DNA from: Escherichia phage UP19
Sequence record: OX638288
Length of the DNA: 64,000 nucleotides
Direction: 5' to 3' (one strand)
How positions within the stretch are numbered: position 1 is the first letter of the stretch; each line of letters starts with the position of its first letter. The translations under genes were made by a program, and so were the position numbers. A model generated the notes under the pieces. The model saw only the letters and a list, made by a program, of their open reading frames with translations. It did no database searches and was not told where the DNA came from. Shown here piece by piece: positions 3,479 through 63,620 of this stretch.

Positions 3479-3507
3479 GTATACAAGGTCTATAGGTGTG
3501 ATACTAT
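3479..3507 (+). promoter_or_regulatory. T4-type early promoter-like cassette (GTATAC -35, 17-nt spacer, TACTAT -10)
   Basis: matches the recurring GTTTAC/TAcTAT cassette; followed by 'tatagacctatcaa' leader. Confidence 0.5.
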
Positions 3508-3544
3508 AGACCTATCAAAACAACAGAGTGAAATGGAGAATAAA

Positions 3545-3757
3545 ATGAAACTTTCTAACCAAGCAATCAACATGTTAAACGAAGTTCGTGCAGCTGGTGC
3601 TAAATGTCTGATGGTTAACACTCGTGACGGTGACCTTCGTCAAGCATTTGGTGAATTGAAATCTGCTGACCTGGTTAAATGTTCAGTTGGTATCGGTAAC
3701 GCACTTCGTGTATCCTTATCCCCTAAAGGTAAAATGTACTTTTTCAACAAAAAGTAA
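3545..3757 (+). CDS. hypothetical protein (70 aa)
   Basis: ORF track 3467..3757 (TTG alt start) trimmed to ATG after GGAGA; in-frame ATG at 3533 also possible. Confidence 0.5.
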   Translation: MKLSNQAINMLNEVRAAGAKCLMVNTRDGDLRQAFGELKSADLVKCSVGIGNALRVSLSPKGKMYFFNKK

Positions 3758-5750: not shown

Positions 5751-6245
5751 ATGGATATTTTTGATATGTTACGTCAAGACGAAGGTCTTGATTTAAATCT
5801 TTATAAAGACACTGAAGGTTATTGGACTATTGGTATTGGCCAGTTAGTTACCAAGAACCCATCTAAAGATGTTGCTCGTGCCGAACTTGACAAACTTATG
5901 GGTCGGGTTTGCAATGGACGTATTACTATGGCTGAAGCTGAACAACTCTTTAACCGTTCAGTGGAAAATGCTCGTAGAGCTATAATGCGTAATCCTAAAT
6001 TGAAACCGGTTTATGATGTGCTGGACGAAGTTCGTCGTTGCGCGCTGATTAATATGGTCTTTCAAATGGGTGAAGCTGGTGTCGCTGGATTTACCAACTC
6101 TCTGCGTATGCTCCAGCAGAAACGTTGGGATGATGCCGCAGTTAACCTGGTGCAGTCCCGTTGGTATAAGCAGACTCCGAATCGCGCTAAGCGAGTTATC
6201 TCTACATTTAAAACAGGAACTTGGAAAGCATATGAAAACCTATAA
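5751..6245 (+). CDS. e: lysozyme (endolysin), T4 e-type, 164 aa
   Basis: protein [13 protein letters not shown]...[10 protein letters not shown] closely matches T4 lysozyme as recalled. Confidence 0.95.
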
Positions 6246-6501
6246 AGAATTTTTGGCCGAATCTCAACTGAACGAAAACACTGACCTAGACCGTATGACA
6301 TTCCTGGCTAAGAAAGGCGGCTTCGAATTTAAAGCCATTAAGAAAGTAAATGGGTATTCTTTTGAAGTCGGTGAATATACCTTTGGTAACAAGGGTGATG
6401 GCCAGTGGCAAATTGTTAAAAACGGCAAAGAAGTAGACTACCTTTTCGGTAAGAAACTTAGTGACATTGCTAAAATAATGGGCGAATATTCTAAAAAATA
6501 G
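6232..6501 (+). CDS. internal-protein-like, N-terminal capsid targeting sequence [10 protein letters not shown] (89 aa)
   Basis: ORF track 6070..6501 trimmed to ATG overlapping e stop; N-terminus matches T4 IP capsid-targeting consensus MKTYQEFIAE. Confidence 0.7.
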
Positions 6502-6529
6502 TTTACATCTCCTGTATGCATGATATTAT
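6501..6529 (+). promoter_or_regulatory. T4-type early promoter (GTTTAC 6501-6506, TATTAT 6524-6529) inside inverted repeat CTCCTGTA/TACAGGAG
   Basis: sequence read; inverted repeat 6509-6516 and 6542-6549 pairs the promoter region with the denV SD. Confidence 0.6.
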
Positions 6530-6557
6530 AGACCTATCAATTACAGGAGATTACAAA

Positions 6558-6974
6558 ATGACTCGTATCAACCTTACCTTAGTATCTGAATTGGCTGACC
6601 AACACTTAATGGCTGAATACCGTGAATTACCACGTGTTTTCGGTGCAGTTCGTAAGCATGTTGCTAACGGTAAACGTGTTCGTGATTTTAAAATCAGCCC
6701 TACTTTTATCCTTGGTACAGGCCATGTTACATTCTTTTATGATAAGCTTGAATTTTTACGTAAGCGACAAATTGAGCTTATAGCCGAATGTTTAAAACGT
6801 GGATTCAATATCAAGGATACTACTGTCCAAGACATTTCCGATATTCCACAGGAATTCCGTGGTGATTATATTCCTCACGAAGCTTCTATCGCTATTTCAC
6901 AAGCCCGTTTGGATGAAAAAATTGCACAGCGTCCTACCTGGTACAAATATTATGGTAAGGCTATTTACGCTTAA
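6558..6974 (+). CDS. denV: endonuclease V (pyrimidine dimer DNA glycosylase), 138 aa
   Basis: protein [31 protein letters not shown]... appears near-identical to T4 DenV as recalled. Confidence 0.95.
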
Positions 6975-8788: not shown

Positions 8789-8817
8789 GTTTACATCTCC
8801 TGTAGACGTGGTACTAT
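8789..8817 (+). promoter_or_regulatory. T4-type early promoter (GTTTAC 8789-8794, TACTAT 8812-8817) within inverted repeat CTCCTGTAG/CTACAGGAG
   Basis: 17-nt spacer; arms at 8797-8805 and 8829-8837, the latter containing the regB SD. Confidence 0.6.
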
Positions 8818-8845
8818 AGACCTATCAACTACAGGAGATTACAAA

Positions 8846-9304
8846 ATGTCAGAAATTAATTCAGAAGTATTCATCCGCCGCAACAAATTACGTCGACAGT
8901 TCGAAACCGAATTTCGTGAACTTAACGCGTCCATCAAAAAAGCCGCCATTAAGAGTGGTGTCCCAGCTTTCTTTATTAAGTACTCTAATCACTTGTTGGA
9001 CCGTGCTATCCAACGTGAAATTGACGAAAAATATGTTTTCTCTTTGTTCAAGAAGCTCCACAATCATGTTAAAGAAATCCATGAATTTTTAATCCAGGAG
9101 CCTCTTCCTGACGTAGAATCTGAAATTGTCCCGGGTAAAGTGTATCGACCACTGCGTCTCGAGATTACCGATAAAACCTTATGGTTAGGTATGACCGTAG
9201 ATCGTAAACATCCTGATAAAGGATATTCATTAAAATGCCGTATGGCATTTGTTAACTCTAAACGTTTAGAAGGTAAAACCAGCACTAAAGTAATCTATCT
9301 TTAA
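8846..9304 (+). CDS. regB: RegB site-specific endoribonuclease (152 aa)
   Basis: ORF track 8741..9304 trimmed; EVFIRRNKLRR...LLDRAIQREIDE...RPLRLEITD matches T4 RegB as recalled. Confidence 0.85.
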   Translation: MSEINSEVFIRRNKLRRQFETEFRELNASIKKAAIKSGVPAFFIKYSNHLLDRAIQREIDEKYVFSLFKKLHNHVKEIHEFLIQEPLPDVESEIVPGKVYRPLRLEITDKTLWLGMTVDRKHPDKGYSLKCRMAFVNSKRLEGKTSTKVIYL

Positions 9305-13209: not shown

Positions 13210-13392
13210 ATGTTAACTACTGAACAGATTGAGAAAATTATTAAACTCGCCCAGCATATTGAAAACGCATCCAATGACCTAGCTGTTGAATATTGCGAAG
13301 GTTATTCATATTCTGGAATAGAGCAGTGTAAACGAGATTTGGCTAACTCCAAAGCGGCCTTGGCTGAGTATCTTAATGAGTTGAAAGCATAA
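13210..13392 (+). CDS. hypothetical protein (60 aa)
   Basis: ORF track. Confidence 0.45.
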   Translation: MLTTEQIEKIIKLAQHIENASNDLAVEYCEGYSYSGIEQCKRDLANSKAALAEYLNELKA

Positions 13393-13649
13393 TGGCTGTT
13401 GGATTTGCTAAGGACGGAGCCGAACAGCTCGAAATGGAAGCGGTCGTTCAGGCCGCTATAGTACACGCCCGTAAGCAAGTAGCAGTTGAACGTGAATCGG
13501 CTAAATATTGTTTTGATTGTGATGAAGAGATTCCTGAAGCACGACGTCAAGCTATCAAAGGTGTGATATATTGTATAGGTTGTCAGTCAATGCATGATGA
13601 AATTTTTAAACGTGAGCCACGTAACTGTTGGCACAGGAGCATGAGATGA
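13392..13649 (+). CDS. DksA/TraR-type C4 zinc-finger protein (85 aa)
   Basis: CFDC-x17-CIGC spacing typical of TraR/DksA zinc fingers. Confidence 0.55.
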   Translation: MAVGFAKDGAEQLEMEAVVQAAIVHARKQVAVERESAKYCFDCDEEIPEARRQAIKGVIYCIGCQSMHDEIFKREPRNCWHRSMR

Positions 13650-14980: not shown

Positions 14981-15979
14981 ATGAAAGGCTACTTCGGTAG
15001 CCATCTTTATGGAACAAGTACTCCGGAATCTGATGTCGATTTTAAAGAAATCTTTGTTCCACATCCGCGTGATATTCTGTTAGGTACGGCAATGAATCAT
15101 ACCAACCTGAACACGAATAACACTGCTTCCAAAAACACTAAAGATGATGTTGACCATGAGCTTTACAGCCTGAAATATTTCTTTAAACTGGCTGCTGAAG
15201 GCGAAACCGTTGCTCTGGATATGCTCCACACTCCGCCTGAAATGGTGGTTAAATCCGATTTACCTGATGTATGGAAATTTATCCAAGATAACCGTTCGCG
15301 TTTCTATACAACTAACATGAAAGCCTATTTAGGGTACGTTCGTAAGCAAGCTTCTAAATATGGTGTTAAGGGTTCTCGTCTGGCTGCTCTGCGTGGTGTA
15401 CTGGCTATCGTTAACCAGATTCCTGAACAGTGGGTTGATTATCAAGAAGATGGTTCTACTAAGCAACGACGTACTAAGGTAGAAGATATTAAGCACCGGC
15501 TCCCTGAAAACGAGTTCTGTGAATGGGTATTTCATAACCACGAGAAAACAGGTCCTCAAACGTTCTATACTGTCCTCGGACGTAAGTACCAAACTACTCT
15601 GTCATTGGTCGAGCTTAAGCAATCTCTGAATAAACTTGATGCAGAATATGGCGAACGTGCTCGTAAGGCTGAAGCTAATGAAGGTATTGACTGGAAAGCT
15701 CTGAGCCATGCTTATCGTGCTGGATATCAGTTGAAGGAAATCTATATGACCGGTGACCTTCAATATCCTTTACGAACAGCACCATTTATCCTTGAAATCA
15801 AACAGGGGCTACATGCTTTTAAAGATGTACAGGCTGAGCTCGAAGCTATAGTTGATGAAGTCGAAACCAATGCCATCTGGGCAGCTAAGAACGGTATGCC
15901 TGATAAGGTAGATATGAAGTTCTGGGACAAGTTCGTTGAGCAGGTTTACCTAGAAAACCATAACTCGTATTATAAATGA
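14981..15979 (+). CDS. Pol-beta-superfamily nucleotidyltransferase-like protein (332 aa)
   Basis: ORF track 14939..15979 trimmed; N-terminal GSHLYGTSTPESDVDF matches the GS-x(9-13)-DxD signature. Confidence 0.65.
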   Translation: MKGYFGSHLYGTSTPESDVDFKEIFVPHPRDILLGTAMNHTNLNTNNTASKNTKDDVDHELYSLKYFFKLAAEGETVALDMLHTPPEMVVKSDLPDVWKFIQDNRSRFYTTNMKAYLGYVRKQASKYGVKGSRLAALRGVLAIVNQIPEQWVDYQEDGSTKQRRTKVEDIKHRLPENEFCEWVFHNHEKTGPQTFYTVLGRKYQTTLSLVELKQSLNKLDAEYGERARKAEANEGIDWKALSHAYRAGYQLKEIYMTGDLQYPLRTAPFILEIKQGLHAFKDVQAELEAIVDEVETNAIWAAKNGMPDKVDMKFWDKFVEQVYLENHNSYYK

Positions 15980-15982
15980 TAA

Positions 15983-16002
15983 AAGGCCTTCGGGCCTTTT
16001 TT
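15983..16002 (+). terminator. rho-independent terminator
   Basis: AGGCC-TTCG-GGCCT followed by TTTTTT. Confidence 0.7.
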
Positions 16003-16022
16003 GGGTTTAGTGCAAAAAAGTA

Positions 16023-16051
16023 GTGTACATCTGCTTTAAACATGTTATTAT
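16023..16051 (+). promoter_or_regulatory. T4-type early promoter (GTGTAC, 17 nt, TATTAT)
   Basis: near-identical to the cassette at 16335-16363. Confidence 0.5.
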
Positions 16052-16101
16052 AGACCTATCAGCTAAAGAGCTGAAAACTTAAACCAAACGGAGATATAAA
16101 A

Positions 16102-16332
16102 ATGTACGCTATCAAAAATTACAAATACGGTTCTTACACTACTAACTTGATCGCTCTGGAAGATACCTTTAAAGCTGATCGTGCTGAAGAATATGAAATT
16201 ATTGAAGCTGTAACTAAAAACAAAGGTAAACAAGTTGTTATGCCTAATGGCCGTAAAGCTGCTCTTTATACAGTAAATGGTGAAACATGGGCCCGCTATA
16301 AAGATGGCTTCTGTGAAATTATTGCAAAATAA
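16102..16332 (+). CDS. hypothetical protein (76 aa)
   Basis: ORF track; GGAGA SD. Confidence 0.55.
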   Translation: MYAIKNYKYGSYTTNLIALEDTFKADRAEEYEIIEAVTKNKGKQVVMPNGRKAALYTVNGETWARYKDGFCEIIAK

Positions 16333-16334
16333 GT

Positions 16335-16363
16335 GTGTACATCCATTTCAAACATGTTATTAT
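16335..16363 (+). promoter_or_regulatory. T4-type early promoter (GTGTAC, 17 nt, TATTAT), duplicate of 16023-16051
   Basis: shared core 'gtgtacatc...aaacatgttattatagacctatca'. Confidence 0.5.
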
Positions 16364-16398
16364 AGACCTATCAAATCTACTGAGTGAAGGAGAATAAA

Positions 16399-17379
16399 AT
16401 GTTAACTATCAAAATCAACAAAGGTATCTATCGCGGTAATGAAATCTCTGGTACGTTCATGAGTTCAGGTAAAACCTGGTTCCCAAATAAAATTCATGAA
16501 TCTGAAGCTCACCTCGGTGATGGCAAGGTATTCGTGCAGATTGATGGTGTTGAACGTGGTGTATGGGTGTTCAAATGTGACGTTGAAATGGAAGGCGCTG
16601 AAGCTCCTGCAATGGTTACTGAATCCGCTGAAGAAATGAAACATCGTATCAACAAACGTTTTAAAGTAATGAACATGATGACTAACGGAATCATCGATGG
16701 TAAAATTCGTTCCCTTATCATCTCTGGTGCCGCAGGTATTGGTAAAACTTATTCTTTGGATAAAGCATTACAGAATGCCCACGAAAATGAAACTATCGAA
16801 TATAAATCAATCAACGGAAAGATTAGTGGAATCGGTCTTTACGAGCAGCTTTGGAATAACCGCGGCCCTAATAGTGTTCTTCTTATTGATGATGTTGATG
16901 TATTCTCTGACATGGATATTCTGAACCTTCTGAAAGCCGCATTGGATACCGGTGAGAAACGTAAGGTGTGCTGGAGCACTTCAAGTTCTTATCTCGATGA
17001 TAAAAATATCGATAAAGAATTCGAATACGAAGGCACCATCGTGTTCATCACCAACGTTGATATTGACCGTGAATTAGAGCGTGGAACTAAACTTGCTCCG
17101 CACCTCCAGGCTTTAGTATCTCGTTCAGTTTACTTAGACCTCGGAGTTCACTCTAACGAAGAGATTATGGTTCGTGTTGAAGACGTTATCCTGTCCACTG
17201 ATATGATGCAAAATCGAGGTCTGACCGATGCTGAGACTTATCAAGCACTGGCATGGATGAAGGCTAATGTATCTCGTCTTCGTAACGTATCATTACGTAC
17301 AGCTCTTTATCTGGCGGACTTCATTGCCACCGATAAAAATGACTGGAGCGAAATCGCTGAAGTTACACTTCTGAAATAA
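16399..17379 (+). CDS. AAA+/P-loop ATPase-like protein with N-terminal extra domain (326 aa)
   Basis: ORF track 16384..17379 (GTG) trimmed; Walker A GAAGIGKT, Walker B LLIDDVD. Confidence 0.65.
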   Translation: MLTIKINKGIYRGNEISGTFMSSGKTWFPNKIHESEAHLGDGKVFVQIDGVERGVWVFKCDVEMEGAEAPAMVTESAEEMKHRINKRFKVMNMMTNGIIDGKIRSLIISGAAGIGKTYSLDKALQNAHENETIEYKSINGKISGIGLYEQLWNNRGPNSVLLIDDVDVFSDMDILNLLKAALDTGEKRKVCWSTSSSYLDDKNIDKEFEYEGTIVFITNVDIDRELERGTKLAPHLQALVSRSVYLDLGVHSNEEIMVRVEDVILSTDMMQNRGLTDAETYQALAWMKANVSRLRNVSLRTALYLADFIATDKNDWSEIAEVTLLK

Positions 17380-17733: not shown

Positions 17734-17762
17734 GTTTACATCTCCAGTAGAAATGATACTAT
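17734..17762 (+). promoter_or_regulatory. T4-type early promoter (GTTTAC 17734-17739, TACTAT 17757-17762) within inverted repeat CTCCAGTAG/CTACTGGAG
   Basis: arms at 17742-17750 and 17774-17782, the latter covering the SD. Confidence 0.6.
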
Positions 17763-17788
17763 AGACCTATCAACTACTGGAGGTTATC

Positions 17789-18313
17789 ATGAACGCTAAA
17801 GATATTTTTTCACTGATTAATTTTAACAATGGTAATTTCAAATCTGAAAAACAAAGCAAGTTCTTTAACGACGTTGCTTGTGGTAATGAGATTACCGTAT
17901 CTGGAGGAGAGATTTACAAAAGCCGTTGGAACTGGATTGCTGTCATTGATTCAGTTGGTATTGTAGAGCTCTATAAAAACACTAACAAAAAACGTACTCT
18001 TCACTGGAGTCGTGAAACCAATCAAGCTTATCAAGCTGAACGTAACAAACGTTTAATGCCTACTGAATCTGACCTGGCAAACGTTAAATCAGATATCGCT
18101 TATTTTGATAACTTGATTGCTGAACAACAAGCGGTTATTGATAAGTTTGATGAAATCAAAGCTTGTAAAGAGATTCCTGAATTCATGCGGGAATCAGTAA
18201 ACGAACAATACGCCCTCACTTCAGGTCGTATCGAACAGTACAAATCGCAACGAGCTGAACGCCAAGCTCTGCTTCAGAAATTTGAAGAGCGTTTAAAGAC
18301 GGTTCTCGCATAA
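17789..18313 (+). CDS. hypothetical protein with C-terminal coiled coil (174 aa)
   Basis: ORF track. Confidence 0.55.
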   Translation: MNAKDIFSLINFNNGNFKSEKQSKFFNDVACGNEITVSGGEIYKSRWNWIAVIDSVGIVELYKNTNKKRTLHWSRETNQAYQAERNKRLMPTESDLANVKSDIAYFDNLIAEQQAVIDKFDEIKACKEIPEFMRESVNEQYALTSGRIEQYKSQRAERQALLQKFEERLKTVLA

Positions 18314-18376
18314 ACGCTTTATACCAAGGATGGTATAATGGTTCTAGGTTCTTAATTACTTACTGAGGAAATTATT

Positions 18377-19222
18377 ATGTCACAGGCAATTAATCAAATT
18401 CGTTCTGAAGTTAAAAAAGTTATTAAATTTGGTCATATTCCGAGTTCCAAAGAAGTGGTTGAAAAGGTCCTATATATGATGTGGGACAAGTTCAATGTTT
18501 GTACTGTTAAAGATGACTTCACTAAAATCTTTGACAAGACTAAAGGTTCGTTTACCTTAGAAGACCGAGTCATGAAAACTCTTCGTAAAACAGGTATGTT
18601 GTCTCGTGCTAATGCCAAAATTATTCTTAAAAATTATAACAAAGGCTACGACCTCTATGGTCGTTTAATCCCGGCGATGTCATTTGACGAAGTGGTTAAA
18701 GACCTTAATACTAATCAACGTCGTCTACTGGCTCTTGGCGCTCGCCTTGCAAAAGGCCAAGATAAACAAATGACATTTAAGACTAATGGTTCAGGTGATT
18801 GGATTATCTTTAATATTGTTAACCACCCTAGAAATGAAAATGAGTATACCATTTCCCATTACAGTGGTTGCCAATACGACAACTGGAAGTTCCATCTCCG
18901 ATTAGCCTTGTCTGAATTAGAACAGCACGGTGTTCTTAGTTTTGGTGATGCCGAAACTGGAGTGGGTCAGCGTATTAAACTTTATAAAATTAAAGACCTG
19001 GCTGAAGAGCATCCAGAACAAGCTCCTAAAATGGAACCTGTACCAGTGCGCAGCAATGAGAAACATCAAGCCCAGATTGAGTATTTTAGCAATTTGATTA
19101 CTTGCTTGAATGTTACAATCCAACAACAAGATGATGAGATTTTCCGACTCTCTGGTCTGAATGCCAAAGCTAAGGCTGAACGCCAGAAATATATCGATAT
19201 CCTAAATCTTCTTAAGGGTTAA
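18377..19222 (+). CDS. hypothetical protein (281 aa)
   Basis: ORF track; shares upstream leader and N-terminus MSQAI with ORF 26197. Confidence 0.55.
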   Translation: MSQAINQIRSEVKKVIKFGHIPSSKEVVEKVLYMMWDKFNVCTVKDDFTKIFDKTKGSFTLEDRVMKTLRKTGMLSRANAKIILKNYNKGYDLYGRLIPAMSFDEVVKDLNTNQRRLLALGARLAKGQDKQMTFKTNGSGDWIIFNIVNHPRNENEYTISHYSGCQYDNWKFHLRLALSELEQHGVLSFGDAETGVGQRIKLYKIKDLAEEHPEQAPKMEPVPVRSNEKHQAQIEYFSNLITCLNVTIQQQDDEIFRLSGLNAKAKAERQKYIDILNLLKG

Positions 19223-25005: not shown

Positions 25006-25034
25006 ATTTACTTCCTCTCCTCACGTGTTATAGT
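25006..25034 (+). promoter_or_regulatory. T4-type early promoter-like (ATTTAC, 17 nt, TATAGT) with inverted repeat CTCCTCA/TGAGGAG
   Basis: arms 25017-25023 and 25051-25057. Confidence 0.45.
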
Positions 25035-25063
25035 CTATCCTATCAACACATGAGGAGAACATT

Positions 25064-25240
25064 ATGACTATCCAAGATAAAGAAATTAAAGTCAACCAGT
25101 ATTATTCAATCAACGGCAAAGCTGTTCTAGTAACTGAAATATCTAGCCTAGACGTGTGGTATACCATAATTGACCTTAATATTAAAACGATTTGTGACCG
25201 TGGTGTATTTTGTTCGATAGCTAAGGAAATTAAATTATGA
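25064..25240 (+). CDS. small protein (58 aa), below ORF-track cutoff
   Basis: translated by eye; GAGGAGAA SD. Confidence 0.4.
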   Translation: MTIQDKEIKVNQYYSINGKAVLVTEISSLDVWYTIIDLNIKTICDRGVFCSIAKEIKL

Positions 25241-26127: not shown

Positions 26128-26156
26128 TTTACAAACTCTTGGGACCAGAGTATAAT
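26127..26156 (+). promoter_or_regulatory. T4-type early promoter (GTTTAC 26127-26132, TATAAT 26151-26156) with -10 inside GGACC/GGTCC hairpin
   Basis: 18-nt spacer; hairpin arms flank the -10 hexamer. Confidence 0.55.
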
Positions 26157-26196
26157 GGTCCTACGGATTATAAATTTTTAAACTGAGGAAATTATT

Positions 26197-26526
26197 ATGT
26201 CACAAGCTATTAAAAACGTACTGAACTCTTTCGCTTTCGATAAAGTTAATGAACTGATGAAAACTGGCTTTGTAACTCCTCAGGTTCTTGACCAATGGGT
26301 TGCTGAACTGTTACCAATCATGCACTCTAAAGACCAAAAAATTGGTAAGAACGGTATTCGTGAAATCCTGGTTCAATATATTCTCGACGAGTTTGATGTG
26401 GCCGCCTTTGGTGTCGAATCTAAAGCTTGGCAGCCAGGTGAAATCACAGACAAAACCATCCGTCGTATGAAGAATCAACGTAAGAAAAAATTCGTTGACC
26501 TGAAAATTGTTAAGGCAGCTAAATGA
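26197..26526 (+). CDS. hypothetical protein (109 aa)
   Basis: ORF track; leader and first codons shared with ORF 18377. Confidence 0.55.
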   Translation: MSQAIKNVLNSFAFDKVNELMKTGFVTPQVLDQWVAELLPIMHSKDQKIGKNGIREILVQYILDEFDVAAFGVESKAWQPGEITDKTIRRMKNQRKKKFVDLKIVKAAK

Positions 26527-28710: not shown

Positions 28711-28884
28711 ATGACGAATTCGATGGATTTTGATAAGATTAAATCTGACAAAAATGAGATGATACTTAAATTTGAAGCTGCTCGTATTAAAGCGGAAAAT
28801 GAAGGTACTATTACCTATAAGCCTATCAAGTTCAGGTCTTCTCATGAACCTCTGTATGGCGTATTAATTGGTAAAGGAGCTTAG
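28711..28884 (+). CDS. small protein (57 aa), below ORF-track cutoff
   Basis: translated by eye; AAGAGG SD 8 nt upstream. Confidence 0.4.
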   Translation: MTNSMDFDKIKSDKNEMILKFEAARIKAENEGTITYKPIKFRSSHEPLYGVLIGKGA

Positions 28885-28895
28885 GCTCCTTTTTT
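28874..28895 (+). terminator. rho-independent terminator
   Basis: GGAGC-TTAG-GCTCC followed by TTTTTT. Confidence 0.6.
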
Positions 28896-28938
28896 GCTTT
28901 ATATTCGGATGATAAAATGAACCAACTGAGGAGAACAT

Positions 28939-30361: not shown

Positions 30362-32030
30362 GTTAAAGAAAGTAACGTATAAAAATATTATGTCGGTCGG
30401 GCAGCAGCCCATTACAATCCAACTTGATAAGGTCCAAAAGACCTTAGTCACTGGTAAAAATGGTGCAGGGAAATCAACATTCCTTGAAGCTGTAACATTT
30501 GCTCTGTTCGGTAAGCCTTTTCGTGATGTTAAGAAAGGGCAGTTGATTAACTCAAGTAACAAGAAAGACCTTTTGGTCGAACTGTGGATGGAATATGATG
30601 GCAAAGAATACTATATCAAACGCGGGCAAAAACCCAACGTTTTTGAAATCTCTTGTGACGGTGAACGTCTTGATGAATCTGCCAGCAGTAAAGACTTCCA
30701 AGCGGAATTTGAACAGCTTATCGGAATGTCCTATGCAAGCTTCAAACAAATTGTCGTACTCGGCACAGCTGGATATACCCCTTTTATGGGCCTATCCACT
30801 CCTGCAAGAAGAAAACTCGTCGAAGACCTCTTAGAGGTTTCTGTATTGGCGGATATGGATAAGTTAAACAAATCTTTGATTCGTGAGACCAATAGCCAAA
30901 TCCAAGTAATAGACGTTAAGCAAGATTCTATTACCCAACAAATTAAAATTTATAATGACAACGAAGAACGTCAACGTAAATTATCTGGCGAAAACGCTGC
31001 CCGTCTACAATTAATGTATGATGAGCTCGTTAAAGAAGCCAGGACTGCGAAGGCGAGCATAGAATCCCTGACTGATGAATTACTCAATGTTATCGTAGAT
31101 GATGACCCTAGCGATTCCATGAGTGACCTGAGTAATAAAGGATTTGCAATCAAAAATGATATGGCAACCTTTACAAAGGTGGTTAAGTTATACGAAACCG
31201 GTGGTCACTGCCCTACGTGTATGCAAGGGTTAGAAGAGAATGGTAATATCCTTACTAAAATTAAGGATAAAAACTTTGAGCTTCAAAAATCTTTGGATAA
31301 GATTAATGAGCAATACCAAGAGCTCAAGCTCATTAAAGACCAAGTAACCGAACAACGCAATAAAGCGTTGGCTATTAAATCTCAGATAGCTACTCATAAG
31401 CAGCAAGCCATTACTGCTGTAGAGAAAGCCAAAAAGGTTAAGGTATTAATTGACCAAGCGGCAGCTGAGTTCGTAAGTAATGCCGAAGAGATTGCTGCGC
31501 TTCAAGCAGAGCTTGATAAAATCGTCTCTACCAAATCGTCCTTGGTAATGGAAAAATATCATCGTGGAATTCTGACAGAAATGTTGAAGGATACAGGTAT
31601 TAAAGGTTCCATTATTAAGAAATACATTCCTATCTTTAATAAGCAGATTAATTCTTATTTGAAGATGTTAGAGGCGGATTATAGTTTTTCTCTTGACGAA
31701 GAGTTCAATGAGACGATTAAGTCGCGTGGACGCGAAGACTTTAGTTATGCTTCATTTAGTGAAGGTGAAAAGTCTAGAATAGATGTGGCTCTGTTATTTA
31801 CCTGGCGAGATATTGCTTCAAAGGTTTCAGGCATTAATATATCTACTCTTATTCTTGATGAGGTCTTTGATGGAAGTTTTGATGCAGAAGGTATTAAAGG
31901 TGTATCAAATATTATAAATTCTTTGGAAGATTCTAATGTCTTTATAATTTCACACAAAGACCATGACCCACAATCGTATGGACAACATTTACAAATGAAG
32001 AAGGTTGGCCGCTTTACAGTATTAGAATAA
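30348..32030 (+). CDS. 46: recombination nuclease ATPase subunit gp46 (SbcC/Rad50-like), 560 aa
   Basis: ORF track 30336..32030 trimmed; MKTFKLKKVTYKNIMSVGQ...GKNGAGKST matches T4 gp46 as recalled. Confidence 0.93.
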   Translation: MKTFKLKKVTYKNIMSVGQQPITIQLDKVQKTLVTGKNGAGKSTFLEAVTFALFGKPFRDVKKGQLINSSNKKDLLVELWMEYDGKEYYIKRGQKPNVFEISCDGERLDESASSKDFQAEFEQLIGMSYASFKQIVVLGTAGYTPFMGLSTPARRKLVEDLLEVSVLADMDKLNKSLIRETNSQIQVIDVKQDSITQQIKIYNDNEERQRKLSGENAARLQLMYDELVKEARTAKASIESLTDELLNVIVDDDPSDSMSDLSNKGFAIKNDMATFTKVVKLYETGGHCPTCMQGLEENGNILTKIKDKNFELQKSLDKINEQYQELKLIKDQVTEQRNKALAIKSQIATHKQQAITAVEKAKKVKVLIDQAAAEFVSNAEEIAALQAELDKIVSTKSSLVMEKYHRGILTEMLKDTGIKGSIIKKYIPIFNKQINSYLKMLEADYSFSLDEEFNETIKSRGREDFSYASFSEGEKSRIDVALLFTWRDIASKVSGINISTLILDEVFDGSFDAEGIKGVSNIINSLEDSNVFIISHKDHDPQSYGQHLQMKKVGRFTVLE

Positions 32031-32713
32031 TGAGACATCTTGTTTACAAAATAATAAATTTAGTTAATAATAAGTACTATGTAGGGATACATAGTACTGA
32101 AAATATTAAAGATTCGTATATGGGCTCTGGTTTATATATTAAAGCTTCTATTAAAAAATATGGTTTGGAAAATCATAGAAAGGAAATACTTTATAATTTT
32201 GATACCAGAGAAGAGGCTATCCAAATGGAAAGAATTATAGTCAATGAGGAATTTATAAAGAACCCTCTTACATATAATATTTCTTTAGGAGGTAATGCCG
32301 CACCTTTTATAAAAGAGGAAACCAGACTTAAACAGAGTATAGCTGCTAAAAATAGACCGTATTCATTTTATGAAAACCTTTTTAAAACTAGAAAGAAATC
32401 TAAATGCCTAGAGCTAAGAAATAAATCTAAAGAACATATAGAAAAAATTCGTCAGAGTAATATAAGAAATGGTACATATTTGCCTGAGAACAACCCTATG
32501 TTCGGAAAAACTCATAGCCAAGAAACAAGGGATAAAATTTCTATAGCCCTTAATTCTAGGTCTGACGAAGCAAAACAGGCTATGAAAAGCAAACAATCTG
32601 CAAAAGCTAAAAGCAGACCAACTGTAAAGTGCCCATATTGTGATAAAATTGGCTCTAACAACATTATGAAACGATGGCACTTTGATAATTGTAAATTAAA
32701 GGATGCTTCATAA
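32030..32713 (+). CDS. GIY-YIG homing endonuclease (Seg-like), 227 aa
   Basis: GIY-YIG motif 'VYKIINLVNNKYYVGIHST'; AT-rich codon usage; inserted between 46 and rpbA. Confidence 0.8.
   Translation: MRHLVYKIINLVNNKYYVGIHSTENIKDSYMGSGLYIKASIKKYGLENHRKEILYNFDTREEAIQMERIIVNEEFIKNPLTYNISLGGNAAPFIKEETRLKQSIAAKNRPYSFYENLFKTRKKSKCLELRNKSKEHIEKIRQSNIRNGTYLPENNPMFGKTHSQETRDKISIALNSRSDEAKQAMKSKQSAKAKSRPTVKCPYCDKIGSNNIMKRWHFDNCKLKDAS
32030..32713 (+). mobile_element. free-standing homing endonuclease gene
   Basis: GIY-YIG ORF between conserved genes; markedly more AT-rich than flanks. Confidence 0.55.
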
Positions 32714-51685: not shown

Positions 51686-51919
51686 ATGGGTGGTTTCGTT
51701 AATATCAAAACCTTTACGCATCCAGCTGGTGAAGGTAAAGAAGTTAAAGGTACTGAGGTTTCAGTTCCGTTTGAAATCTATTCAAATGAGCATCGTATTG
51801 CCAATGCTCATTATCAGACTTTCCCTTCGGCCGTTGCAGCCTATACTACTGTAGTGACTGATGCAGCCGATTGGCGAACTAAGAACGCGGCGATGTTTAC
51901 GCCAACTGATATTGTTTAA
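51686..51919 (+). CDS. soc: small outer capsid protein Soc (77 aa)
   Basis: GFVNIKTF...AHYQTFPS matches T4 Soc as recalled. Confidence 0.85.
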   Translation: MGGFVNIKTFTHPAGEGKEVKGTEVSVPFEIYSNEHRIANAHYQTFPSAVAAYTTVVTDAADWRTKNAAMFTPTDIV

Positions 51920-51925
51920 TTATAA

Positions 51926-51946
51926 GGAACCTTCGGGTTCCTTTTT
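51926..51946 (+). terminator. rho-independent terminator
   Basis: GGAACC-TTCG-GGTTCC followed by TTTTT. Confidence 0.7.
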
Positions 51947-51956
51947 CGTTTTAAGG

Positions 51957-53396: not shown

Positions 53397-53572
53397 TGGA
53401 CTTATTTGATATGTTCGATGCTCCTGAAACAACTCAGGAGCCGCCTATTGACCTTGTCAACGAACTTGATATGATTATACAGAAGCATGGTTTTAAGTTG
53501 CCTAAAGAGGTTCTTATTGACCTAGCTTCTTATTACTTAGACCCTCCACCATGGGCACCTTGGGTAAAATAA
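53396..53572 (+). CDS. small acidic protein (58 aa), below ORF-track cutoff
   Basis: translated by eye; TAATG overlap. Confidence 0.35.
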   Translation: MDLFDMFDAPETTQEPPIDLVNELDMIIQKHGFKLPKEVLIDLASYYLDPPPWAPWVK

Positions 53573-53805
53573 TGAATTGGCTAACTAATATACCTACATC
53601 GGCGTTGGATATCGACCGTAAACAAGCTCGTAAGGAAACCGAGCAAAAAAATATTCAGGCAAAAGCTCCTAAGATTGAAGCTGAGAAGCCAGAAACAAAA
53701 AGCTCTTATGAATCAAAAAGCTCCTATACTTCATATACCCAATCCTCATTAGGCATGGCTGCCGACATTGCAGTGTTTGGCGTCCCACTTGGTGTGTTTA
53801 AGTAG
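53572..53805 (+). CDS. hypothetical protein (77 aa)
   Basis: ORF track 53551..53805 trimmed to TAATG-overlap ATG. Confidence 0.45.
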   Translation: MNWLTNIPTSALDIDRKQARKETEQKNIQAKAPKIEAEKPETKSSYESKSSYTSYTQSSLGMAADIAVFGVPLGVFK

Positions 53806-53833
53806 TTTACACCCCCTCCCTTCATGTTATAAT
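53805..53833 (+). promoter_or_regulatory. T4-type early promoter (GTTTAC 53805-53810, TATAAT 53828-53833) followed by RBS hairpin TGACCTC/GAGGTCA
   Basis: 17-nt spacer; hairpin 53833-53856 overlaps the SD. Confidence 0.6.
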
Positions 53834-53857
53834 GACCTCTAAATCACTGGAGGTCAT

Positions 53858-54427
53858 ATGAACATCGAACAAAAATGTCTTTATCAAGACCGAATCAATT
53901 CTAAATTTTCAAAATCTGAACAAGCGTTATTAGAGAAATGTCTAGACGCCAAAAAAGACCCTAACTTCCATTACGACCTCGACAAACTGGTTCGCAAGCA
54001 TGTTACTTCAGCGGTTCCAGTAGAGTTGTATCGTGGGATTACCACCAGAGAACTTGAGCAATTAGAGCTCCTTTCAGTAGGGTATCAATGGTCTCCTGGT
54101 CGAGTTACTTCTTTTAGTACACAATACTCTCAGGCTCGTCAGTTCGCAGGGGCATGGGAGTATGGAACCAAAACCATTTTAAGTCTCAGGAATGCACCGT
54201 TCATTTTCGACTACTACAATCATGCTATCGACCTTGTTCTTGCAGGGAATGTGGATGAGCTTGAAATAGATGAATCTCGTATCGACCTCTATGATATGGT
54301 TGAAACTGAATGCGAGTTCATGGTCTCTAGTCTATCGCGATTTGAGATTGTTGCAATCGAAACCGTCAAAAGGGATCCATACGAAATCGAGTATAAAACA
54401 ATTCATTTAAAAATGTTAGATTTTTAG
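53858..54427 (+). CDS. ADP-ribosyltransferase, Mod-type (ModB-like by position), 189 aa
   Basis: R-S-E-type motifs LYRGIT, SFSTQYS, ECEF; paralogue of next gene; position between soc and srd as for T4 mod genes. Confidence 0.65.
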   Translation: MNIEQKCLYQDRINSKFSKSEQALLEKCLDAKKDPNFHYDLDKLVRKHVTSAVPVELYRGITTRELEQLELLSVGYQWSPGRVTSFSTQYSQARQFAGAWEYGTKTILSLRNAPFIFDYYNHAIDLVLAGNVDELEIDESRIDLYDMVETECEFMVSSLSRFEIVAIETVKRDPYEIEYKTIHLKMLDF

Positions 54428-58535: not shown

Positions 58536-58564
58536 GTTTACTTCTCCTCATGACATGATATTAT
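58536..58564 (+). promoter_or_regulatory. T4-type early promoter (GTTTAC 58536-58541, TATTAT 58559-58564) within 10-bp inverted repeat TCTCCTCATG/CATGAGGAGA
   Basis: arms 58543-58552 and 58577-58586, the latter covering the SD. Confidence 0.6.
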
Positions 58565-58591
58565 CTACCCTATCAACATGAGGAGAACAAA

Positions 58592-59101
58592 ATGAAAATT
58601 TATCGAGTTGAGTCATCGTTCAGTATCTTAGATGATGGAAACGCTATCACAATACGACGAGACCTCTGTACCCAAATGACCCCGTATAGAAGTACAACAG
58701 ACTCATGGAGTGAAGGCTGGTTATTAGAAGTAGGTTTAGACAGACCTATTTTTAGACATCATCATAGCATTAATAAAAATATCCCACTACCAAGTCAAGA
58801 TAAGTTGCTGGTAGAAAATTCTAATAAAACCATTAGAACTAAGTGGAAACGGCCTGATTATGAAGGCTGCGACGATTATATTCCAGGCTGGTTTGTTAAC
58901 CTCTACCATTTTGCTTTTGCCAGTGAGTATGATATGATGCGCTGGTTCACTCGTGAAGAGCGTAAAGAATTATCTTCTAAAGGATTCTATCTTGCTGTTT
59001 ACGAAATACCAGAAGATGAGGTTGTCATCGGTGGCCGCCAAGTAATGTTCCGCAAATCTTATGCCGAACTCGTAGATTTTATTGAATTGAGAACAATATG
59101 A
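58592..59101 (+). CDS. hypothetical protein (169 aa)
   Basis: ORF track. Confidence 0.55.
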   Translation: MKIYRVESSFSILDDGNAITIRRDLCTQMTPYRSTTDSWSEGWLLEVGLDRPIFRHHHSINKNIPLPSQDKLLVENSNKTIRTKWKRPDYEGCDDYIPGWFVNLYHFAFASEYDMMRWFTREERKELSSKGFYLAVYEIPEDEVVIGGRQVMFRKSYAELVDFIELRTI

Positions 59102-59648: not shown

Positions 59649-59677
59649 GTTTACTTTATCGAGAGCCATGTTATAAT
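59649..59677 (+). promoter_or_regulatory. T4-type early promoter (GTTTAC 59649-59654, TATAAT 59672-59677) with -10 inside hairpin AGAGCCAT/ATGGCTCT
   Basis: 17-nt spacer; hairpin 59662-59683 has the -10 hexamer in its loop. Confidence 0.6.
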
Positions 59678-59719
59678 GGCTCTTATGGATTATAATCCTT
59701 TAACCAAGAGAGAAAAATT

Positions 59720-60271
59720 ATGATTACTATCGGTGAAATTGTTCGTGTATCCAAAGAATCTCGCTCAAAAGCCGCAGGTCGTTTTGTTGAAGTTGCAGGT
59801 ATTCGTACCAATTTAGTAGGTGGAATTAAAGAAGTTAAAGTGCGTATTATTCCTAAAAATGGCCAGACCGAAACCGAATTTGCTTATGTTCGCCCTAAAT
59901 TTTTAAAATCGACTGAATTTACCGGATACATCGCTCCTGTAGTTGAAGAAGTTGAATCCCATGATGGGTATGTATGTGAAAGCAATGATATCCGTGGCGT
60001 AGTAGCTCAAGACGTTGAAACTATTGACCAATCTCATGTCGGCGTTGATTTCAAATGGAAATTAGGTCGAGGAGTGTGTTTTAATACTCCTAAACCGTTC
60101 AAATATGTTGACGAACCTTTTGGTACTTACGAAACCAGTAGCATGTCTGGTTACATCACAGACCAGTGGGTTGAAGGTGGCGTTAAGCTCTATAACATCG
60201 TGTTCCTTGGAACCTTTAAGGTTGTTCCTGAAAGCTTTATTGTTGAATATGCTAACATTCACCGTGCATAA
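59720..60271 (+). CDS. hypothetical protein (183 aa); paralogue of 59098..59646
   Basis: ORF track; shared C-terminal motif. Confidence 0.55.
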   Translation: MITIGEIVRVSKESRSKAAGRFVEVAGIRTNLVGGIKEVKVRIIPKNGQTETEFAYVRPKFLKSTEFTGYIAPVVEEVESHDGYVCESNDIRGVVAQDVETIDQSHVGVDFKWKLGRGVCFNTPKPFKYVDEPFGTYETSSMSGYITDQWVEGGVKLYNIVFLGTFKVVPESFIVEYANIHRA

Positions 60272-60284: not shown

Positions 60285-60320
60285 GTATACAATACGGTAG
60301 GGTAGTGATAAGATTACCCT
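60285..60320 (+). promoter_or_regulatory. early-promoter-like cassette (GTATAC) with hairpin AGGGTA/TACCCT; duplicate of cassette at 3479
   Basis: downstream leader matches 3517-3547. Confidence 0.4.
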
Positions 60321-60352
60321 ATCAAAACAAATGAGTGAAATGGAGAATAAAA

Positions 60353-60421
60353 ATGTTTGCACCTTATATTATGATTGCAGTTATCGTTATCTGTCTGTAT
60401 CTTTTAATTAAAGCTTGTTAA
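60353..60421 (+). CDS. tiny hydrophobic peptide (22 aa), speculative
   Basis: translated by eye; ATG after GGAGA in duplicated leader. Confidence 0.25.
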   Translation: MFAPYIMIAVIVICLYLLIKAC

Positions 60422-60432
60422 GGAGATTTAAA

Positions 60433-60654
60433 ATGACTACTAAAATCACTGCAAACTCGACTCGTGAAGAATTTGAAGATGTTCTGTTCAACCCTGATTT
60501 AATCGTGGTTCAAAAGGAACATTCTGATACGTTTTCTCATTTATCGTCGGTTTATGTATACGAAAATCAAGGTGATAAAAACCCTATCTATGCAGTGTTC
60601 CGTGAAATCACTGCTGAAGGCACCGACTTCTGGAAGGAAACTTACAATGCTTAA
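60433..60654 (+). CDS. hypothetical protein (73 aa)
   Basis: ORF track 60415..60654 trimmed to ATG after GGAG. Confidence 0.5.
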   Translation: MTTKITANSTREEFEDVLFNPDLIVVQKEHSDTFSHLSSVYVYENQGDKNPIYAVFREITAEGTDFWKETYNA

Positions 60655-61529: not shown

Positions 61530-61545
61530 GGGCTTCGGCCCTTTT
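61529..61545 (+). terminator. candidate rho-independent terminator (short T-run)
   Basis: AGGGC-TTCG-GCCCT followed by TTTT. Confidence 0.45.
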
Positions 61546-61595
61546 ATGCTTTAAGTGAAATGGGATAATATTCTCCTACTACATGAGGAAATAAC

Positions 61596-63413
61596 ATGAT
61601 TAAGAATGAAATTAAAGTACTGTCCGACATTGAACATATCAAAAAACGTAGTGGGATGTATATTGGCTCAAGTGCTAATGAAGCCCACGGTCGATTCCTG
61701 TTCGGTAATTTTACCCAGGTGAACTATGTTCCTGGACTGGTTAAATTAATTGACGAAATCATTGATAACTCTGTCGATGAGGCTATTCGTACCAATTTTA
61801 AATTCGCAAATAAAATTGATGTTCAAATTAAGAATAACCAGGTTTCGGTTTCTGATAATGGCCGTGGTATTCCTCAAGCAATGGTTACTGACCAAAACGG
61901 TGAACAAATTCCAGGTCCTGTAGCTGCATGGACTATTCCAAAGGCCGGTGGTAACTTTGGAGATGACGCTGAGCGTAAGACAGGCGGCATGAACGGTGTT
62001 GGTAGTAGTTTAACTAATATCTTCTCTGTTTTGTTCACAGGCATCACCTCTGATGGTGAGAATGAGATTACTGTTAACTGTTCCAATGGAATGGAAAACA
62101 AAGGTTGGTCTACTAAGAAATCTAAAGGTAAGGGTACTTCGGTTATATTCACCCCAGACTTTAACCATTTCGAAGAAAATAGTCTGTCCCAAATTTATCT
62201 GGATATTACATTAGACCGTCTTCAAACACTGGCCGTAATTTATCCAGATATCCAATTTACTTTTAATGGTAAAAAAGTAGATGGTAACTTTAAAAAGTAT
62301 GCTAAGCAATTTGGTGAAGACTTTGTAATCCAAGAAACTGATAATGTTTCGATGGCATTTACTCCTTCTCCGGACGGGTTCCGTCAACTGACGTATGTAA
62401 ACAATATCCATACCAAGAATGGTGGCCACCACGTTGAATGTGTGTTTGATGATATTTGTGAGCACCTTCTGCCTGGTATTAAAAAGAAATATAAAGGAAT
62501 CGAAGTAACTAAGGCTCGTGTTAAAGAATGCCTTACTATGGTAATGTTCATTCGTGATATGAGCAATATGCGTTTTGATTCACAGACTAAAGAGCGATTA
62601 ACCTCTCCGTTTGGTGAGATTCGTAACCATATCCAAATTGATGCTAAGAAAATTGCAACGGCTATTCTTAAGGTCGATGGGTTGATTATGCCTATTGTCG
62701 AAGCCGCTTTAGCACGTAAACTCGCTGCTGAAAAAGCCGCCGAAACAAAAGCTGCTAAGAAAGCTTTGAAAGCCAAGGTCCATAAGCATATTAAAGCCAA
62801 TATGTATGGCAAAGACGCTGATACGACTTTATTCCTTACGGAAGGTGATTCTGCAATGGGTCCTTTCATTGAAGTTCGTAATAAAGACCTCCAAGGTGGT
62901 TATCCGTTACGCGGAAAGGTTATGAATACCTGGGGTATGACTGCTGCCGATATCATGAAGAACAAAGAATTGTTTGATATCTGTGCAATCACTGGACTGG
63001 TTATTGGTGAACCTGCAGATAAAACCAACTACCGAAATATCGCTATCATGACTGACGCCGATGTGGATGGTACTGGTTCGATTTATCCTTCGTTATTAGC
63101 TTTCTTTAGTCAGTGGCCGGAATTGTTTGAACAGGGACGAATTCGTTTCTGTAAGACTCCTGTAATTATTGCCCAGATTGGTAAAGAACAAGAATGGTTT
63201 TATGACGTTCCTAGTTATACCAAAGTCAAGGACTCTCTACCAAAACATTCTATTCGATATATCAAAGGTCTCGGTTCTCTTGAGAAAGCTGAATACCGTC
63301 GAATGATTCAGGACCCTAAATTTGATGTGGTTCAATTGCCTGAAGATTGGAAAGAACAGTTCGAAATGCTCCTTGGAAACGACCCTCAACTCCGTAAGGC
63401 TTGGATGTCGTAA
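61596..63413 (+). CDS. 39: DNA topoisomerase II large (ATPase, GyrB-like) subunit gp39 (605 aa)
   Basis: GyrB ATPase motifs; matches T4 gp39 as recalled. Confidence 0.95.
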   Translation: MIKNEIKVLSDIEHIKKRSGMYIGSSANEAHGRFLFGNFTQVNYVPGLVKLIDEIIDNSVDEAIRTNFKFANKIDVQIKNNQVSVSDNGRGIPQAMVTDQNGEQIPGPVAAWTIPKAGGNFGDDAERKTGGMNGVGSSLTNIFSVLFTGITSDGENEITVNCSNGMENKGWSTKKSKGKGTSVIFTPDFNHFEENSLSQIYLDITLDRLQTLAVIYPDIQFTFNGKKVDGNFKKYAKQFGEDFVIQETDNVSMAFTPSPDGFRQLTYVNNIHTKNGGHHVECVFDDICEHLLPGIKKKYKGIEVTKARVKECLTMVMFIRDMSNMRFDSQTKERLTSPFGEIRNHIQIDAKKIATAILKVDGLIMPIVEAALARKLAAEKAAETKAAKKALKAKVHKHIKANMYGKDADTTLFLTEGDSAMGPFIEVRNKDLQGGYPLRGKVMNTWGMTAADIMKNKELFDICAITGLVIGEPADKTNYRNIAIMTDADVDGTGSIYPSLLAFFSQWPELFEQGRIRFCKTPVIIAQIGKEQEWFYDVPSYTKVKDSLPKHSIRYIKGLGSLEKAEYRRMIQDPKFDVVQLPEDWKEQFEMLLGNDPQLRKAWMS

Positions 63414-63617: not shown

Positions 63618-63620
63618 TCA

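Follow-up and report, generated by a model that had tools for sequence, protein, structure and literature searches.

Why do two unrelated early genes of a T4-type phage begin almost identically? The question is raised by a stretch of Escherichia phage UP19 (sequence record OX638288; 64,000 nucleotides (nt), hereafter the window). Here the start of the nrdC.6 homolog (18377-19222, + strand, ATG at 18377; T4 nomenclature) closely resembles that of the homolog of T4 55.2 (26197-26526, + strand, ATG at 26197). We call these two starts pair 1. Pair 2 consists of the leaders of a 70-amino-acid (aa) gene at 3545-3757 and of a 22-codon mini-gene at 60353. The original prediction saw in both pairs a regulatory 5′ module grafted by recombination onto different open reading frames (ORFs). 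This is supported for pair 2, by an insertion found in 2 of 633 records, a copy at frd.1 and a slot in a Mosigvirus, and is not supported for pair 1. Both pairs probably belong to a single family of early-strand cassettes, in which pair 2 would have been swapped and pair 1 would represent an older short-tract conversion. The cassettes appear to correspond in sequence to the promoter-early and promoter-middle stem-loops (PeSLs and PmSLs) of T4-like phages (Arbiol et al., 2010, PMC2839356; Comeau et al., 2014, PMC4122927). The general idea of 5′ cassettes that recombine in front of different ORFs is right and has already been published in these two papers.

The phage is a JS98-like T4-type coliphage of the genus Dhakavirus. 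The window covers early-gene DNA in which early transcription follows the + strand, and between 17000 and 27500 it is 98.7% identical to IME281 and 94.8% identical to JS98. A regA homolog is present in the region. Among the genes at the starts in question, Pfam placed gp55.2 (DUF7570) and Cef alone; T4 gp55.2 is an inhibitor of the host topoisomerase I (PMC4396842). A search of the whole window against Rfam matched no known RNA family. The diversity of nrdC.6 was sampled from T4, one Mosigvirus and four Gaprivervirus sequences, a narrow sample because the search for the locus returned close relatives only.

The likeness of pair 1 is greatest at the site of translation initiation. Positions 18362-18393 and 26182-26213 match without gaps at 30 of 32 positions, from the ribosome-binding site (RBS) through codon 6, and this level was reached in none of the dinucleotide shuffles of the window. 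When 132 gene starts of the window were compared from -15 to +17, this pair ranked first among 8646 (runner-up, 24/32; background mean 12.2, sd 2.8). The -10 regions are also alike (TATAATGGTTCTA and TATAATGGTCCTA). The roughly 20 nt that separate the -10 from the block are weakly alike and can be aligned only with three 1-nt indels. With the 15-nt block around the Shine-Dalgarno (SD) sequence left out, the best partner of the nrdC.6 upstream region (-75 to -16) among all gene upstreams is that of 55.2 (score 16; background mean 7.4, sd 1.7). The near-repeat reported between 18334-18390 and 26151-26210 is thus real for the 32-nt block and for the -10, and does not extend to the weakly similar nucleotides between them. 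By these comparisons only the 32-nt block appears unusually alike. It was also correctly noticed that two unrelated proteins open with MSQAI. NrdC.6 begins MSQAINQI and gp55.2 MSQAIKNV, and BLASTP found no homology between them past the N-terminus (E=2).

The promoters of the two genes have different affinities. MotA boxes follow the consensus (a/t)(a/t)(a/t)TGCTTtA and lie 12±1 base pairs (bp) upstream of an excellent -10 (PMC2988021). The sequence AAACGCTTTA upstream of nrdC.6 deviates from this consensus once (C for T), and its 12-nt distance to TATAAT fits the rule. A sigma70 scan found no -35 at this promoter, which therefore lacks the sigma70-type element of a PeSL. An 8-bp inverted repeat, TTATACCA/TGGTATAA (18319-18326 and 18331-18338), overlaps its -10. 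The promoter core, GCTTTATACCAAGGATGGTATAATGGTTCTA, is identical in T4, where it lies after nrdC.8 and upstream of nrdC.7, and is near-identical in a Mosigvirus and a Gaprivervirus. PnrdC.7 is among the mapped MotA/AsiA-dependent middle promoters of T4 (Table 1 in Hinton, 2010, PMC2988021). Judged by the common core and by the MotA-box-like element 12 nt from TATAAT, the nrdC.6 promoter appears to be the ortholog of PnrdC.7, and its dependence on MotA/AsiA is predicted. The T4 promoter drives nrdC.7, whereas that of the window directly precedes nrdC.6; nrdC.7 is absent from the window, the Mosigvirus and the Gaprivervirus.

The 55.2 promoter has the features of a sigma70-type early promoter with a conserved hairpin of its own, TGGGACCA/TGGTCCTA (26140-26147 and 26156-26163), which encloses the -10. 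This promoter recurs in the Mosigvirus, where the stem has changed in a compensating way (GAGAGC/GCTCTC), whereas in T4 a terminator hairpin occupies the position. In T4-like phages further removed, the promoters are of the Mot-box type, and here too a hairpin covers the -10. Across other T4-like phages, this hairpin position is held by at least ten different compensating stems. The comparisons at orthologous loci therefore indicate that the two promoters differ in class and that each was inherited at its own locus, so that the look-alike promoters of pair 1 would be one middle and one early.

The history of the shared block can be followed in more distant phages. In phages merely 56-65% identical to the window phage, MSQAIKNV of gp55.2 is preceded by (T)ACTGAGGAAATTnnTATG. 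This N-terminus with its ACTGAGGAAATT leader appears to be ancestral for gp55.2, and the starts found in T4 (MTIQIKN), the Mosigvirus (MSTKIKN) and the Gaprivervirus (MTASITN) appear to be derived. NrdC.6 begins MSVVINN in T4 and MSITSD in the Mosigvirus; MSQAIN is found in Gaprivervirus and Dhakavirus only. The SD-ATG spacer AAATTATT (ATTATT), which is similar to the T4 nrdC.7 leader, precedes 55.2 only in Dhakavirus and nrdC.6 in Dhakavirus and one Gaprivervirus. The 30/32 identity stands between unrelated flanks, in a tract too short for a formal conversion test. The simplest history suggested by these sequences is a short-tract exchange between two start regions that were already similar. 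The QA codons would have been converted from 55.2 into nrdC.6 in the ancestor of Gaprivervirus and Dhakavirus, and the ATTATT spacer would have been homogenised later, perhaps from nrdC.6 to 55.2. Selection for a common translational signal may have reinforced the likeness. Pair 1 thus has the appearance of an old look-alike, conserved at each of two loci. The Gaprivervirus comparison alone had pointed to acquisition of the 55.2 start block from nrdC.6, a direction that the distant 55.2 loci reversed.

In pair 2, the sequence GAGTGAAATGGAGAATAAAA is found exactly at both 3526-3545 and 60333-60352, where shuffles predict 0.03 matches. The likeness takes in AAAACAGTATACAA, a hairpin and TATCAAAACAA up to the ATG, with an extra A before the second ATG. 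The recurrence of the leader at 3517-3547 and 60322-60355 is accordingly confirmed as a 20-nt exact repeat, although the leader starts at 3514, so that 3517 was about 3 nt late. Both cassettes carry a hairpin over the -10, at 3486-3495/3504-3513 (followed by the leader at 3514-3544) and at 60296-60306/60313-60323. The leader at 60353 is a mosaic whose left part resembles the IME281 cef leader and whose right part resembles the leader of nrdC.10 and the 3545 gene. In IME281, JS98, JS10 and almost all Dhakaviruses the motB-cef promoter and hairpin lead straight into cef. The 22-codon insertion is complete in just 2 of 633 matching records, and the tract that was replaced extends from the leader as far as roughly codon 7 of cef.

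DNA about 84-86% identical to the mini-gene is found upstream of frd.1 in 198 Tequatrovirus-type records. The T4 copy encodes MFAPYIMAAVMLVCLYLLIKAC, with synonymous and conservative changes only, and is unannotated in T4T (locus L008, 1516-1584). There, a promoter with a GGGTA...TACCC hairpin precedes the ORF and TAAGGAGAATAAAATG follows it. An exact degenerate-pattern scan of IMG/VR returned two loci, adding nothing beyond 200 GenBank records. The ORF, whose product is hydrophobic, is probably a real small membrane peptide gene. T4 has its own arrangement in the motB-cef spacer (T4T, L079, 1480-1640, - strand), an 11-codon ORF (MENSLKVLILF) behind TTGGAGAATAAAATG and a promoter with its own 10-bp hairpin (CAGTAGTTGA/TCAACTACTG). 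The promoter-proximal slot between motB and cef therefore holds phage-specific mini-ORFs.

The other member of pair 2 also has a relative elsewhere. A homolog of the 3545 gene (66% identity, E 7e-28) lies between nrdC.11 and nrdC.10 in a Mosigvirus, flanked by two cassettes. In the window the same slot holds an unrelated 76-aa ORF (16102-16332) with no Pfam match. IME281 and IME540 lack both this ORF and the first of the two cassettes around it, at 16023. The second cassette, at 16335, has the nrdC.10 leader GAGTGAA(AT)GGAGAATAAAATG, and the leader common to pair 2, GAGTGAAATGGAGAATA(A/T)AATG, belongs natively to nrdC.10 in IME281, in IME540 and in the Mosigvirus. Taken together, the comparisons identify pair 2 as an apparently real recombination product. 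A 22-codon promoter-proximal mini-gene would have come to lie behind the motB-cef promoter, its leader being a copy of the nrdC.10-type leader that also precedes the 3545 gene.

Both pairs are part of a much larger set. A scan for a GTTTACA-like element, 15-17 nt and TAnnnT, followed by an SD and an ATG, found 20 sites, all of them on the + strand, where first-order Markov simulations of the window predict 0.1. A longer motif, GTTTACA-N16-TACTAT-AGACCTATCAAC, is common to most of these sites. As direct repeats, the cassettes are 60-100 nt long. They open with an A-rich stretch before the -35 (GTTTACA, or a MotA box), and continue with a -10 (TAnnAT) and a stem-loop that encloses or adjoins it. 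The 3′ part often has TATCAAC around the start site, then a strong SD and an ATG 30-48 nt past the -10, a distance that holds for intergenic cassettes. Stem-loops are present in almost all of them, with fold z values of -3 to -6 in 9 of the 12 cassettes folded. The features of PeSLs recur at pairs 1 and 2. Promoters of the PeSL type are found at 55.2 (TTTACA-17-TATAAT) and at 3545 and 60353 (GTATACA-16/17-TACTAT/TAAGAT), and hairpins at 26140-26163, 3486-3513, 60296-60323 and 18319-18338. An SD and start codon at the 3′ end, an A/T-rich 5′ end with an upstream stop codon, many co-oriented copies and ORF indels or replacements alongside are likewise present. Closer to each other as promoter-leader duplicates than the members of pair 1 or pair 2 are the denV and regB cassettes, which are 88% identical over 67 nt. 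The features are collected in Table 1.

Table 1. Promoters, start blocks, cassettes and the inserted mini-gene in the window.
Feature	Position	Strand	Details
nrdC.6 promoter	18312-18339	+	MotA box AAACGCTTTA at 18312-18321; 12-nt spacer; -10 TATAAT at 18334-18339
nrdC.6 translation initiation block	18362-18393	+	ACTGAGGAAATTATTATGTCACAGGCAATTAA; SD GAGG at 18365-18368; ATG at 18377
55.2 early promoter	26128-26163	+	TTTACA-17-TATAAT (26128-26133/26151-26156); scan 11/12
55.2 translation initiation block	26182-26213	+	ACTGAGGAAATTATTATGTCACAAGCTATTAA; ATG at 26197
Early cassette of the 70-aa gene (3545-3757)	3479-3547	+	-35 variant GTATACA; -10 TACTAT at 3502-3507; fold z -3.8
motB-cef early cassette	60285-60355	+	GTATACA; -10 TAAGAT at 60309-60314; fold z -3.7
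22-codon hydrophobic ORF	60353-60421	+	MFAPYIMIAVIVICLYLLIKAC; between promoter and cef (cef start 60433)
Tandem cassettes 16023-16104 and 16335-16401	16023-16401	+	79% identical; around the 76-aa ORF 16102-16332
denV cassette	6501-6560	+	spacer ATCTCCTGTA/SD region TACAGGAGAT; -15.3 kcal/mol; z -4.25
regB cassette	8789-8848	+	spacer ATCTCCTGTAG/SD CTACAGGAGAT; -18.3 kcal/mol
nrdC.8 cassette	17734-17791	+	ATCTCCAGTAG/CTACTGGAGGT; T4 ortholog GTTCCTC/GAGGAAC
55.6 cassette	25006-25066	+	CTCTCCTCACGTG/CACATGAGGAGAA; -21.1 kcal/mol; z -5.2
motB.2-region cassette	58536-58594	+	TTCTCCTCATG/CATGAGGAGAA; -19.4 kcal/mol; z -6.1
motB cassette	59649-59722	+	55.2 subtype (TATAATGGCTCTTATGGATTATAA); hairpin GAGAGCCAT/ATGGCTCTT around the -10
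modB cassette	53805-53860	+	84-aa ORF 53551-53805 stops exactly at the -35

The genes beside the cassettes differ among close relatives and occupy other loci in other genera, and the leaders are mosaic. In a raw count, four of the eight breaks between the window and IME281 abut cassettes (6252-6496, 15973-16319, 53572-53806 and 60335-60440); of the other four, two are exchanges of homing endonucleases, one is a deletion at a 7-nt microhomology and the last is a small patch of divergence. At 6232-6501, downstream of the lysozyme gene, the window and IME281 (locus L002, 7014-7412) carry allelic ORFs that have only their first ten codons in common, MKTY(K/N)EF(L/I)AE; from there to the promoter cassette of denV no relationship remains. 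The junction of these alleles appears to lie inside the 5′ end of the coding region, where a common 5′ module on different ORFs can be seen directly. The 84-aa ORF in front of modB is absent from IME281 and is inserted exactly between the preceding stop codon and the modB -35. Away from the promoter cassettes, IME281 lacks an 85-aa ORF of the DksA/TraR zinc-finger type (13392-13649; Pfam PF01258, E 1.6e-9) through a deletion between two CTGTTGG microhomologies. At 32030-32713 a + strand 227-aa ORF containing NUMOD3 faces a - strand homing endonuclease gene in IME281. At 61545-61741 the window lacks an HNH endonuclease gene that IME281 has upstream of gene 39.

We propose that the homologous recombination system of the phage would cross over between cassettes, in the interval from the -10 to the first codons. 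Such crossovers would insert, delete or replace the ORF behind a cassette and would homogenise short tracts. The same homologous exchanges would have moved the 22-codon ORF and the family of the 3545 gene and homogenised the block of pair 1. Dedicated recombination at the cassettes, either structure- or sequence-specific and using for example a hairpin-recognising nuclease, is a quite unlikely alternative. It was raised as a possibility by the authors who described PeSLs. The hairpins are kept at fixed positions by compensating changes across genera, and the window codes for endonuclease VII and several homing-type endonucleases, which would suit such a mechanism. The stem sequences differ between cassettes, however, so that there is no common recognition sequence. 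The junctions vary in position from the leader through the first codons, and one deletion is a plain 7-nt microhomology event away from any cassette.

Other explanations concern the likeness itself. A chance resemblance of AT-rich ribosome-binding regions is hardly credible. An SD, an AT-rich spacer and an ATG are general to such regions, and a 12/14 match of first codons is found once elsewhere in the window, but the shuffle expectations (0 for pair 1, 0.03 for pair 2) and the six-match margin by which pair 1 leads the 8646 comparisons lead us to reject it. For pair 1, the graft of the original prediction, taken as a recent duplication of an entire promoter-leader-start module placed before two unrelated ORFs, is very improbable. 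The 30/32 block, the matching -10 regions (TATAATGGTYCTA) and an upstream likeness that is weak yet above background would agree with a graft, and allelic ORFs with only their first codons in common do exist in this phage group. The alignment of homologous loci in related phages nevertheless excludes a recent graft of the whole module. The promoter classes differ, a MotA box with no -35 against TTTACA-17-TATAAT, and each promoter is conserved at its own locus in the other genera compared (T4, Mosigvirus and Gaprivervirus). The leader and N-terminus of 55.2 are kept in distant phages, and the roughly 20 nt from the -10 to the SD are not conserved between the copies.

A more serious contender, which we still consider somewhat unlikely, dispenses with recombination in pair 1 and holds that the same initiation region evolved twice under selection, as a RegA operator or as an unstructured AU-rich start. 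When 133 gene starts are scored against the T4 RegA consensus from in vitro selection (SELEX), aaAAUUGUUAUGUAA (PMC3014915), those of pair 1 (GAAATTATTATGTCA) come out best at 12/15, with the next start at 11/15. The regA homolog in the region favours selection of this type, contexts of the TGAGGAAATTA type are found again at further genes, among them 44 and imm, and MS..I(N/K) is old in both NrdC.6 and gp55.2. The RegA operators of T4 and RB69 are likewise AU-rich and unstructured, with a 5′ A tract that overlaps the AUG. The identity of pair 1 exceeds an operator-sized region, however. It reaches +17, past the RegA consensus, and takes in synonymous positions (TCA, CAA and ATT). Both genes are predicted RegA targets at most. 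The known RegA targets 44 and 45 reach just 9/15 in the window, so that the consensus is a poor predictor of targets and the test a weak one. Furthermore, the SD-ATG spacer is variable, and the two genes agree in it only in the genus where both have it.

Several points weigh against conversion in pair 1 and exchange in pair 2, which we continue to prefer. The recombination events are all reconstructed from comparisons. The conversion tract of pair 1 is tiny, about 3 nt changes and the spacer relative to T4, and no polymorphism common to nrdC.6 and 55.2 was seen among the Dhakaviruses. Convergence or coincidence on top of the old MS..I(N/K) similarity may therefore be the source of pair 1. MSQAIKNV was itself one of the search patterns for distant gp55.2 loci, so that lineages of gp55.2 with other starts may be under-sampled. 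For pair 2, GGAGAATAAAATG is a start context widely used in T4-like phages and part of the leader likeness is therefore generic. Finally, most of the stem-loops in the window have no U-tract (T-run), which makes the terminator role of PeSLs doubtful here.

A different kind of hairpin in the window is a GC-rich terminator with a UUCG-type tetraloop, for example AAGGCCTTCGGGCCTTTTTT. It is present in four copies (15974-16008, 28866-28900, 51917-51951 and 63612-63646), three of which have an early promoter within about 20 nt downstream. Such terminator-promoter composites differ from the AT-rich hairpins that lie inside promoters.

Some of the cassettes have a further property. In those of denV, regB, nrdC.8, 55.6 and the motB.2 region (starting at 6501, 8789, 17734, 25006 and 58536), the 10-15 nt that follow the -35 complement the SD region of the same gene and are predicted to form helices of 10-13 bp in which this upstream arm pairs with the SD. 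The fold energies are -15.9 to -21.1 kcal/mol (-15.3 for denV in Table 1), with z from -3.3 to -6.1. The pairing is specific to the cassette by permutation in the window (p=0.001) and at the T4 locus (p=0.027), and is not significant over the whole 21-kb loci of Mosigvirus (p 0.31) and Gaprivervirus (p 0.43). Such complementarity is also found at comparison loci L004 (431-490 and 9286-9346), L005 (1086-1146) and L075/L076. The stems covary between paralogous cassettes and between the regB and nrdC.8 orthologs across genera. For regB, they are ATCTCCTGTAG/CTACAGGAGAT in Dhakavirus, TTCTCCTCTAG/CTAGAGGAGAA in Mosigvirus, TTTTCCTCTTGAC/GTTAAGAGGAGAA in T4 and TTTCTCCTCTTTATG/CATAAAGAGGAGAAA in another T4-like lineage. 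The regB covariation was read from folds of each sequence, as MAFFT did not align the SD arm of T4 with those of L075/L076.

The presumed transcription start lies inside the loop, so that only read-through transcripts would form the helix. We tentatively suggest a model, possible rather than probable, in which the spacer after the -35 is selected for complementarity to the SD (GGAG type). Messages that read through from upstream would be masked and shielded from RegB, and those from the gene's own promoter would be exposed. If the pairing is functional, promoter choice would be tied to early-gene translation, and both the translation and the RegB sensitivity of each early gene would be set by the promoter that made the mRNA. 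A masking device of late genes would then become a general design rule of early genes, and PeSL stem-loops would gain a function other than termination. The pairing is not discussed in Arbiol et al. (2010, PMC2839356), whose text contains neither "translation" nor "ribosome."

The shuffling of PeSL type documented in RB49/phi1, T4/PST and KVP40/nt-1 would by these comparisons extend to JS98-like phages. Phages of this group are used in phage-therapy work. Concrete junctions are supplied by the mini-gene found at frd.1 in T4 and at cef in the window, by a small gene whose promoter-flanked slot differs between genera and by allelic ORFs alike in their first ten codons only. The two pairs also carry a warning for annotation, in that near-identical gene starts need not signify related proteins or a recent duplication. 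Apart from the cassettes, the window has a tandem array of five small ORFs at 377-1621 (377-667, 677-958, 968-1165, 1175-1387 and 1397-1621). All end in a motif of the type W-[VIFY]-[STP]-S-S-x-x-C (GAWISSSALC, GGWVSSSSEC, TSWVSSSYEC, GFWFTSSMSC and KIWYPSSC) and share the junction TGCTAAGGnAAT...ATG. They match no Pfam family.

Among known systems, promoter-dependent masking of the RBS has been described for T4 e, soc, 49 and I-TevI (reviewed in PMC3014915). As proposed for the window, the SD of these genes is paired upstream in read-through transcripts, and the gene's own promoter lies in the hairpin, so that its own transcripts lack the 5′ arm. Those genes use late promoters and block early translation, whereas the internal promoters of the window cassettes are of the early sigma70 type. 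Moreover, the 5′ arm in the window is the promoter's own -35/-10 spacer.

The closest likeness is to PeSLs and PmSLs. In these composite repeats an A/T-rich region accompanies a promoter that is either sigma70-like or of the Mot-box type, a stem-loop lies between or over the -35/-10, and an SD and an ATG follow. They are present in many copies in hyperplastic early regions, beside small ORFs that were inserted, deleted or replaced between close relatives. The window cassettes agree with the T-even-type consensus TTTACW-N17-TAYWAT, and the published crossovers likewise fall between the -10 and the SD/ATG. PeSLs were detailed for RB49/phi1, T4/PST and KVP40/nt-1, whereas JS98 was cited only for PeSL-like sequences near gene 43. 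The stems of the window are mostly AT-rich, are not followed by a U-tract and vary between cassettes, and at least five cassettes are predicted to pair the promoter spacer with the gene's own SD. In RB49/phi1, PeSLs work as promoters, a reporter assay showed termination at their stem-loops, and mini-circles arise from crossovers between the -10 and the SD/ATG (PMC2839356). The internal-protein (IP) loci of T-even phages are flanked by conserved promoter/stem-loop repeats (Repoila et al., 1994, cited in PMC2839356). As described in that citation, these repeats also have T4-type early promoters and AT-rich stem-loops that flank highly variable small genes, and they belong to the IP loci only, whereas the design in the window is spread over the whole 64-kb early region.

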